This document shows, in pieces, positions 55,249 to 55,640 of a stretch of DNA of 64,000 nucleotides. Origin of the DNA: a virus. Both the position numbers and the translations under genes were made by a program. The stretch is taken from the IMG/VR virus record IMGVR_UViG_3300045988_125828, positions 1 to 64,000 of that record, one strand, 5' to 3'. Below the pieces are notes generated by a model. The model was not told where the DNA came from. It did no database searches and saw only the letters and a list, made by a program, of their open reading frames with translations. Positions within the stretch are counted from its first letter, which is position 1; each line of letters begins with the position of its first letter.

Positions 55249-55640
55249 GATACACCGTTCTTTGACGTATTGATGTAGATATTAAGAATATAAGTCTTTG
55301 TTGAAACTGTATTCTTATTCTAATATTAATCAAGGAATTACGTATAGCGGAAACGCCGAAACTACGTATAGGATTGGTTATCGTGATTGTTTCTTCGCAC
55401 CGAAATGTCCTACGGTAGAGAGTATGCGGTTTGGGCGTCCGTATCGCAAGAAACAACAGGTCATAAAGACAACATAAGCGTCCGATACAGTCTTAAATCG
55501 GTATAAAGTATGCGGTGGTAATGAAAGGCGGCCGTACACGCTTATTATATATATTCTCGTGGCTCACCGTAAGGCGAGTGGTAAGGCTTAACATCGGAAC
55601 GCTCACGAGAACAATTACTAATCACTAATTTAAAATCAAA
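55249..55640 (+). ncRNA. candidate large structured RNA (~390 nt)
   Basis: No credible ORF. Nested long-range helices, two GNRA tetraloop hairpins (GCG-GAAA-CGC 55347-55356; CC-GTAA-GG 55567-55574), and a repeated decamer AGTATGCGGT. Confidence 0.4.

Follow-up and report, generated by a model that had tools for sequence, protein, structure and literature searches.

What fills the gap of about 390 nt that lies between a tRNA-like element and the next gene of a phage sequence recovered as IMGVR_UViG_3300045988_125828? We analysed positions 1-64,000 of this record (here called the window, a stretch of 64,000 nt; coordinates are those of the whole stretch), for which a preliminary description based on the letters alone had proposed that the gap at 55249-55640 is a candidate large non-coding RNA, perhaps of a new family. 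We show here that the gap is a conserved, non-coding, structured RNA on the + strand, belonging to the early operon of a Bacteroidales phage from the gut, and that it is a modular leader, a mosaic of separable modules that recombine among related phages. The leader is headed by a short box that matches the boxA consensus of Bacteroidota ribosomal-RNA (rrn) leaders. Arguing by analogy from this match, we tentatively favour, with somewhat less than even confidence, the view that the region is an anti-termination leader of the rrn/nut type for the rightward early operon.

That the gap is non-coding and structured on the + strand follows from its folding and from the breakage of its open reading frames (ORFs) in homologues. 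The minimum free energy (MFE) of the + strand of 55249-55647 is -104.9 kcal/mol, against -87.4 +/- 5.5 for dinucleotide shuffles (z -3.17), whereas the - strand of the same segment has a z-score of -0.25. Strand-specific G-U pairs, which would be A-C on the - strand, are fixed in the alignment of the D-domains described below (U-G in 24/24 cells, G-U in 23/31). That a protein-coding gene has decayed here, or that the region encodes a small protein, has a likelihood of virtually nil: ORFs of 59, 101, 53, 39 and 37 amino acids (aa) do exist in it, but all five are disrupted by stops or by indels that are not multiples of three in 30-32 of 33 representative homologues, no third-position or codon-position bias appears at the variable columns of these 33, and the 59-aa ORF has no PHROG match. 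The earlier statement that the gap holds no credible ORF is borne out, and the prospect it had itself raised, that homologous phages might carry a coding gene here, finds nothing in these frames, none of which is conserved.

From 5' to 3' the leader comprises the tRNA-like element (M0), the boxA-like box, the hairpins M1 and M2, two copies of what we call the D-domain (D1 and D2) and a 3' hairpin module, M5 (Table 1). Such leaders are present in more than 100 IMG/VR contigs of Bacteroidales phages. The decamer AGTATGCGGT, which had been reported at 55421 and 55507 and is found there, as are both GNRA tetraloops of the preliminary description, occurs as a pair at this spacing in 85 IMG/VR contigs; a 20-mer of D2 likewise occurs in 85, and the D1-type pattern in more than 118. 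Among the loci of the decamer-pair scan, five (L082, L090, L106, L116 and L162) proved to be coding repeats or a tandem repeat and were set aside. Homologues are 78-98% identical to the window in 55381-55620, 67-77% in 55249-55380 and 58-98% in the tRNA-like element, and only 17-35% beyond 55620. D1 varies between classes A, B and C of the related phages, and class B phages carry the Rfam motif DUF2693-FD in place of M0 (58 bits in L169). Because box, M1, M2, D1, D2 and M5 shuffle independently among related phages, the region is not one large ornate RNA; the part of the original proposal that survives is that it is conserved, structured and non-coding. The modules are non-homologous between classes, so that RNAalifold performed poorly on a global MAFFT alignment, and they were therefore analysed one by one, using N-padded structural alignments that kept MAFFT in register. 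The element was not found in cultured phages of GenBank, either by blastn of 55100-55660, which gave no match, or by tblastn with the RecT-like protein encoded downstream, which gave only distant matches (<=42% identity), and the exact D2 20-mer had no match among GTDB representative genomes.

The box, GTTCTTTGACGTATTGA, has no structure of its own, and no other linear element is as well conserved through all the architectural classes. The phage part of the window contains it a single time. Of the 84 distinct D-domain elements, 82 have the box within 400 nt on their upstream side, where it comes straight after a tRNA-like element in 69 cases and after a DUF2693-FD-like element in at least 9, and its orientation is that of all flanking genes and of the candidate promoter at 54242-54272. 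A scan of metagenomes for TCTTTRA located 71-131 nt upstream of the 5' end of Bacteroidota 16S genes gave 135 matches in at least 120 loci (L231-L350). At positions left unconstrained by the pattern these rrn leaders have G at -2 (125/135) and T or A at -1 (132/135); G occupies the R position in 117/135, A-A follows the core, T is found at +12 in 111/135 and G at +13 in 80/135, and TATTG/ATTGA is enriched just 3' of the motif. The resulting consensus is aG[T/A]TCTTTGAAa..TG, that is, aGTTCTTTGAAa..TG, and the strong conservation at unconstrained positions together with the TATTGA enrichment leads us to read the Bacteroidota rrn boxA as aGTTCTTTGAAa(n)TATTGA-like. This motif lies 80-140 nt upstream of the mature 16S and, because it is 30-45 nt downstream of a TTTG..TAnnTTTG promoter, it must be transcribed and is not itself a promoter. 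The window reads GTTCTTTGAcgtatTGA at the box: the 9-nt core GTTCTTTGA is identical to the derived consensus, and the TATTGA on its 3' side is also common to both. Judged by its sequence, the phage box (GUUCUUUGACGUAUUGA) is a copy of the boxA of host ribosomal-RNA leaders. The boxA consensus of gamma-proteobacteria, for comparison, is GYTCTTTAANA (PMC5725501).

Two other interpretations of sequence motifs were tried and set aside. As a -33 TTTG element of a Bacteroides promoter the box fails, with no TAnnTTTG at 19-21 nt in any class, and the location of the same motif 3' of the promoter in rrn leaders also counts against this idea. A 'UAGCGA' motif common to DUF2693-FD, the tRNA-like element and rrn leaders is not enriched (8/112 leaders). 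We know of no such boxA site described for Bacteroidota phages, and a search of the literature on DUF2693, structured RNAs of Bacteroides phages and Bacteroides boxA returned nothing specific.

Most of the structure 3' of the box belongs to D1 and D2, which, from their sequence and pairing pattern, are paralogues of a single fold of ~70 nt, a three-way junction closed by a loop-loop pseudoknot. The closing helix P1 leads into a hairpin, Pa, with a loop of 9-15 nt, followed by a junction ending in AAGUA and by a second hairpin, Pb (UGCGG/CCGUA), with a G-rich loop; a helix of 4-5 base pairs then joins the loops of Pa and Pb. When the sequences are aligned by hand on the structure, with N-padding, pairing is kept in 94.5% of cells and both sides have changed in 16/27 pairs, and in a model-derived alignment of 36 matches the figures are 95.5% and 18/23, against 34-47% pairing in slid controls, the alignments themselves being fitted to the structure. 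The pseudoknot lay outside the model used for alignment; over the same 36 matches it is 99% paired, with 3/5 pairs covarying. Its two strands are UGUCC/GGGCG in D1, GUCUU/AAGGC in D2, CAUCU/AGGUG in classes C and E, CAUCA/UGGUG in locus L216 and CGUCU/AGGCG in type G, and in type H the Pb helix is replaced by UGAUG/CAUUA. The outer helices of both domains that had been drawn by eye are present and supported by compensatory changes. The TACGG/CCGTA helix proposed within D1, on the other hand, is contradicted by D-domain types C and H, and we replace it with two better supported pairings, ACCG 55399-402 with CGGT 55413-16 and TGCGG 55425-29 with CCGTA 55439-43. The tertiary contacts that had been suspected from the repeated decamer take the form of the covarying loop-loop pairings, which involve sequence beside it.

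A covariance model (R1) built from nine D-domain sequences from outside the window matches in the window only D1 (67.9 bits, E 3e-17) and, marginally, D2 (18.2 bits, E ~0.01-0.04). D2 is counted as a D-domain because it shares the decamer, the architecture and the loop-loop pairing; its MFE fold is the proposed junction (z -2.39) and it is nearly invariant, loops included, with 7 sequence variants among 56 distinct copies. Across 85 RecT-anchored loci R1 finds 28 matches, all on the gene strand and all upstream of RecT (at ~4001), between locus positions 66 and 3196. Single-copy and double-copy forms both occur, and further types exist elsewhere, including stand-alone types E (20 loci) and F (10 loci) and one copy in the prophage of Bacteroides sp. 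KG123, where locus L180 lies around 2,242,366-2,251,166 of NZ_CP171223.1. No Rfam 15 model matches the D-domain, which, as far as alignment and covariation can tell, is a new, well-supported RNA motif with a pseudoknot.

The role of the D-domain could be that of a docking site, of a stable RNA released from the transcript or of a sensor. In the last case D1 and D2 would be tandem ligand-binding aptamers, a riboswitch controlling the downstream early genes. The topology invites this comparison: like the junction of purine riboswitches, with their 'tuning-fork' shape, the ~70-nt D-domain combines a P1 helix with two parallel hairpins whose loops pair, here by a covarying helix, and it has conserved junction nucleotides, the junction (AAGUA ... 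UC) being invariant while the helices vary freely; the tandem copies recall the glycine riboswitch. We nevertheless regard a riboswitch as improbable. The D-domain differs in junction layout, its segments measuring 0-2, 8-9 and 1-2 nt, neither sequence nor model links it to the purine class, and no other riboswitch model of Rfam matches. There is no expression platform and no terminator, and between the 3' strand of P1 and the start codon lie ~100 nt and one stable hairpin. Finally, the downstream gene is not conserved (17-35% identity) and some phages have one copy of the domain where others have two.

Table 1. Positions of the features discussed, in window coordinates except for the last three rows, which use the coordinates of the named loci.
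Feature	Position	Strand	Basis
Integrase	49167-50300	-	
M0, tRNA-like element	55133-55245	+	cloverleaf in sequence and MFE fold
boxA-like box GTTCTTTGACGTATTGA, 17 nt	55257-55273	+	unstructured; match to rrn-leader consensus
M1, long imperfect hairpin	55274-55338	+	folding, variants
M1 core helix AAGAATA / TATTCTT	55284-55290 / 55310-55316	+	compensatory changes
M2, hairpin TACGTA/TACGTA with asymmetric internal loop and invariant GCG-GAAA-CGC tip	55339-55368	+	covariation
M2 outer helix TACGTA / TACGTA	55339-55344 / 55363-55368	+	compensatory changes
M2 tip GCG-GAAA-CGC	55347-55356	+	
D1, D-domain three-way junction	55387-55456	+	model R1, covariation
D1 outer helix TTGTTTCTT / AAGAAACAA	55387-55395 / 55448-55456	+	compensatory changes
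D1 P1 (C55396 bulged)	55387-95 and 55397-98 with 55446-56	+	
D1 Pa	55399-402 / 55413-16	+	
D1 junction AGAGAGTA	55417-24	+	
D1 Pb	55425-29 / 55439-43	+	
D1 loop-loop helix TGTCC with GGGCG	55406-10 with 55433-37	+	
Linker hairpin GTC-ATAAA-GAC between D1 and D2	55460-55470	+	RNAalifold; weak evidence
D2, second D-domain	55474-55545	+	MFE, manual structural alignment, R1 marginal
D2 P1 ATAAGCGT / ACGCTTAT	55474-55481 / 55538-55545	+	compensatory changes
D2 Pa CCGAT / ATCGG	55482-86 / 55497-501	+	
D2 junction TATAAAGTA	55502-10	+	
D2 Pb	55511-15 / 55532-36	+	
D2 loop-loop helix GTCTT with AAGGC	55490-94 with 55525-29	+	
M5, 3' hairpin module, followed by an A/U-rich spacer and ATG 55648	55554-55611	+	outer-helix conservation
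M5 outer helix TTCTCGTG / CACGAGAA	55554-55561 / 55604-55611	+	compensatory changes
M5 inner hairpin CTCACC-GTAA-GGCGAG	55563-55578	+	
Divergent D-domain copy, L022 (also in relatives)	1317-1389		
Divergent D-domain copy, L050 (also in relatives)	1506-1576		
Divergent D-domain copy, L180 (also in relatives)	2399-2468		

Among the remaining modules, M2 and M5, like the D-domain, keep their pairing through two-sided changes, covariation having been suggested as a check on the early proposal, and the outer helices first noted in M1, M2 and M5 are all present. In M2, 100% of cells are paired (slid controls 15-56%) and three of the six outer pairs change on both sides (TACGGA/TCCGTA, TATGGG/CCCATA); its resemblance to group II intron domain 5 or to a K-turn, judged by eye against consensus sequences, was rejected. 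The linker hairpin still pairs in its variants GTT/GAC and GTCA/TGAC. The outer helix of M5 keeps 7-8 contiguous pairs in 29 of 31 distinct type-1 variants, with a compensatory change from CTCGTG/CACGAG to CCCGTG/CACGGG, its inner hairpin is swapped in some variants for an unrelated CTCTCAA...TTGAGAG, and it contains the conserved unpaired stretch GGTAAGGCTTAACATCGGAACGC; homologues have three M5 types. In related phages M5 has extra copies 20-45 nt in front of a number of different genes, each on the same strand as its gene (L011 299-411 and 1248-1335; L117 6150-6258 and 7205-7286; L138 6568-6659 and 7035-7107; and others), and carry the conserved unpaired GGTAAGGC..ATCGGAACGC, the window having one copy only. 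From its sequence context, M5 may be a general intergenic signal for processing, stabilisation or translation.

M1 exists among homologues in three unrelated sequence versions, all of which form hairpins with G-U pairs on the + strand, and the segment 55257-55338 folds with a z-score of -3.73. The inner 24 nt of M1 in L006 (ATCCGAATATCAGATATTCAAACT, ~2292-2317) are the exact reverse complement of those in L004 (AGTTTGAATATCTGATATTCGGAT, ~2455-2480), an inversion equivalent to window 55280-55320 that represents a flip of the imperfect palindrome at the level of DNA, in which two G-U pairs become C-A mismatches on the + strand. It could be argued from this DNA event within a long imperfect palindrome, from the two decamers, which are direct repeats 86 bp apart, and from the proximity of recombination genes that the whole region functions as DNA, be it an operator or palindrome, a replication origin or an initiation site on single-stranded DNA. 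Such a role seems highly improbable: helices of unrelated sequence stay complementary through G-U pairs on the + strand only, the loop-loop pseudoknot covaries, GNRA tetraloops are present, the folding z-score differs by strand and the box equals a transcribed signal of rrn leaders.

The recommended Infernal search against Rfam assigns the region to no family. With Rfam 15 at the gathering score over the whole window, and up to E = 10 in 54900-55900, GOLLD, ROOL, HEARO, group I and II introns and RNase P gave no match; in 36 related loci, which were also searched, the only matches were to DUF2693-FD, to tRNAs and, once, to RT-17, a reverse-transcriptase-associated motif (L207 8646-8722, 41.5 bits). 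GOLLD and ROOL share with our element a prophage context, an adjoining tRNA-like gene and many helices, but no covariance model matches and the element is smaller, modular and continuous with the downstream mRNA. Closer relatives are DUF2693-FD (RF02926) and DUF2693 (RF02956), RNA motifs reportedly described by Weinberg et al. in 2017 (PMC5737381), which come from this phage group and form part of this leader architecture, although neither model covers D1, D2, M2 or M5. The match of the window to DUF2693 reaches 15.2 bits (E = 3), well short of the gathering score of 81.3 over a 165-position model, and it covers just the unstructured 5' box (55257-55307), skipping the structured part; the 5' consensus of that family, GaUCUUUGACAU, is nonetheless found in the window as GUUCUUUGACGU at 55257-55268. 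DUF2693-FD, a 49-nt three-way junction with a threshold of 44.5 bits, is absent from the window and occurs at the equivalent position in L169, L180, L185, L196 and others (55-76 bits), where it precedes the box by 10-20 nt and the D-domains by 190-230 nt. In many phages a divergent D-domain (Pb ACGG/CCGU, loop-loop CGUCU/AGGCG) stands directly 5' of DUF2693-FD (Table 1), and because of this the 49-nt motif seems, on sequence evidence, to be one piece of a longer conserved structure. The idea of a new family is thus right in that no Rfam family matches, and has to be qualified in that DUF2693-FD in relatives and the box within the DUF2693 consensus are a precedent.

The window holds a temperate phage of Bacteroidales, and the position of the leader in it resembles that of a classical early-operon signal. 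A divergent promoter-like region at 54170-54420, which looks like a lysogeny switch, includes a candidate promoter aTTG-19 nt-TATCTTTG on the + strand at 54242-54272 and a - strand site TTTG..TATTTTTG near 54367; the leftward genes occupy 53880-54170 and 53513-53878, with 54422 as the start of the rightward early operon. The window yielded no S24/CI-type repressor. Three small rightward ORFs, one encoding an HTH_17 protein, precede the tRNA-like element and the 390-nt region, which are followed by a 73-aa Cys-rich ORF, a RecT-like protein (phrog_3657) and a YqaJ exonuclease. The 73-aa protein (55648-55869) has CxxC-type cysteines (KKWCVTCQFYDSC) and matches nothing in Pfam or PHROG. At 52876-53349, ~2 kb before the RNA element, the phage carries an RNase H gene (79 bits to Pfam RNase_H). 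Related RecT genes are found in prophages of Bacteroides sp. KG123 and B. reticulotermitis and in assemblies of Bacteroidaceae, Prevotella and Dysgonomonas. A single terminator-like site exists, a fortuitous match within D2. From the RNA to the next ATG, at 55648 and no more than 35 nt from M5, there is no intrinsic terminator, and because the element runs in this way into the next gene it has the look of an operon leader. Its link is with the operon and not with a particular gene, since the gene that follows it differs between homologues (17-35% identity; DUF6948 in L169 and L180). L169 carries, one after another, an integrase, an S24 repressor (-), a small ORF (+), DUF2693-FD, the box, the RNA and the genes, an arrangement that by analogy gives the leader the position of nutR after cro.

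By analogy with rrn operons and lambda nut, an anti-termination leader of this kind would be co-transcribed with its flanking genes from the early promoter, and its nascent RNA would expose the 17-nt box just after the tRNA-like element. The box would recruit NusB-S10 and other Nus factors to RNA polymerase, and the modified enzyme would resist Rho and downstream terminators, cross ~500 nt of untranslated RNA and let the recombination and replication genes be expressed. The resemblance to a boxA site holds at the level of sequence, and Nus binding and read-through are predicted from it. M1, M2, the two D-domains and M5 would fold co-transcriptionally behind the box, and the D-domains, with their invariant AAGUA / UGCGG...CCGUA core, would be a likely docking site for the polymerase/Nus complex or for a phage protein, a part comparable to boxB or put RNA in lambdoid phages. 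Besides the identity of the core, the likeness to rrn boxA and lambda nut extends to the location, in the leader of an early operon and behind its first small genes, like nutR after cro, and to a structured element immediately beside boxA; but the phage has no recognisable N-like protein or 15-nt boxB hairpin (a hairpin, M1, does follow the box, with three unrelated sequences among homologues), and its structure, of ~350 nt, contains two pseudoknotted three-way junctions, its Nus role being a prediction. With the put RNAs of HK022, which bring about anti-termination independently of protein, it would share, in a functional comparison that is speculative, a cis-acting folded RNA in the early leader of a temperate phage that possibly acts directly on polymerase, although put consists of two stem-loops of ~70 nt without boxA, unlike a pseudoknotted three-way junction with boxA.

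Several observations weigh against an anti-termination leader. Beside the element there is no conserved partner protein, N-like, Q-like or other, and no terminator that would need to be overridden was identified. BoxA alone would be enough for Nus recruitment, so that the model accounts neither for a further ~350 nt of structure nor for how little D2 varies. The single-sequence MFE fold pairs the box with 55330-38, which would occlude boxA if real; this pairing is kept in homologues only partly and not consistently. The marginal score of D2 under R1 has to be read beside the one match of 20.9 bits that an unrelated 509-kb control gave. Lastly, at E. coli suhB boxA acts in repression and not in read-through (PMC5725501).

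The tRNA-like element upstream of the box bears on a different possibility. Its acceptor stem (TTCCTCT/AGGGGAA), D arm and T arm (GCACG-TTCGATT-CGTGC) are three arms of a cloverleaf and form in the MFE fold; the anticodon stem TCGCTAA/TTAGCGA is extended and, in place of a 7-nt anticodon loop, there is an insertion of ~40 nt that includes the hairpin CCGG-TCTGTT-CCGG. No CCA is encoded, the first pair is U1-A72 and the 3' end is 11 nt before the box. ARAGORN finds no tRNA gene in the window and the Rfam tRNA model does not match there. Related phages have four sequence types of 95-117 nt; 24/24 variants keep 7/7 acceptor pairs, and the shortest, in L117, is called tRNA-Leu(taa) by ARAGORN. Portions resembling the 3' part of a tRNA, with T arm and acceptor-like end (for example GGGCGG...GGTTCGACTCCAGCACCGTCCAC), also lie directly 5' of genes in related phages (L050 1700-1840 and 2070-2180; L022 1520-1610), and Rfam 'tRNA' matches of 98-156 nt with large insertions occur at L080 2468-2565, L062 6212-6334 and L046 6204-6359.

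These features would suit a stable trans-acting RNA cut from the early transcript, in which a molecule of ~360 nt, or single D-domains, act on a host or phage target. The tRNA-like element would be a handle for RNase P or RNase Z, leaving a 5' end near 55246, M5 would protect the 3' end, and boxA would merely shield untranslated RNA from Rho and aid folding, as in rRNA. Phages offer precedents, including the stable RNAs of T4 that are co-processed with tRNAs, GOLLD and ROOL beside tRNAs and the immunity RNAs of P1 and P4 made through RNase P. The presence of a tRNA-like element or the 49-nt DUF2693-FD directly 5' of the box, at the frequencies given above, speaks for such processing, as do the acceptor and anticodon stems that stay paired through compensatory changes, the tRNAs and tRNA-like pieces around these elements in related phages and the Rfam type of DUF2693-FD and DUF2693, which is 'Gene; sRNA'; the near-invariance of D2, in its loops too, would fit recognition of a conserved partner. 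We still consider a trans-acting RNA somewhat unlikely, since the transcript has no terminator or obvious 3' end so close to the next gene, the independent shuffling of the modules and the occurrence of M5 on its own before other genes argue against one defined molecule, and no complementarity to a target was found.

A host-type boxA heading a covarying leader RNA offers a directly testable hypothesis for anti-termination in these phages, the new pseudoknotted fold is well suited to structural study and to work on ligand or protein binding, and the Bacteroidota rrn boxA consensus is a useful by-product. That the D-domain, as an undescribed class of fold, and a host-type boxA together make up a new RNA-based system of processive anti-termination or Nus hijacking in temperate phages of Bacteroidota is a broader proposition that we hold to be distinctly unlikely as yet. 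Bacteroidales phages are major members of the human gut virome; to our knowledge, almost nothing has been established about their gene regulation and no anti-termination system has been defined in them. Our analysis assigns DUF2693 and DUF2693-FD, both orphan motifs of Rfam, to one shared functional architecture. If the proposition is true, this leader would be the first nut/put-like device in Bacteroidota outside the classical lambdoid and rrn paradigms, and it would give a function to both motifs.

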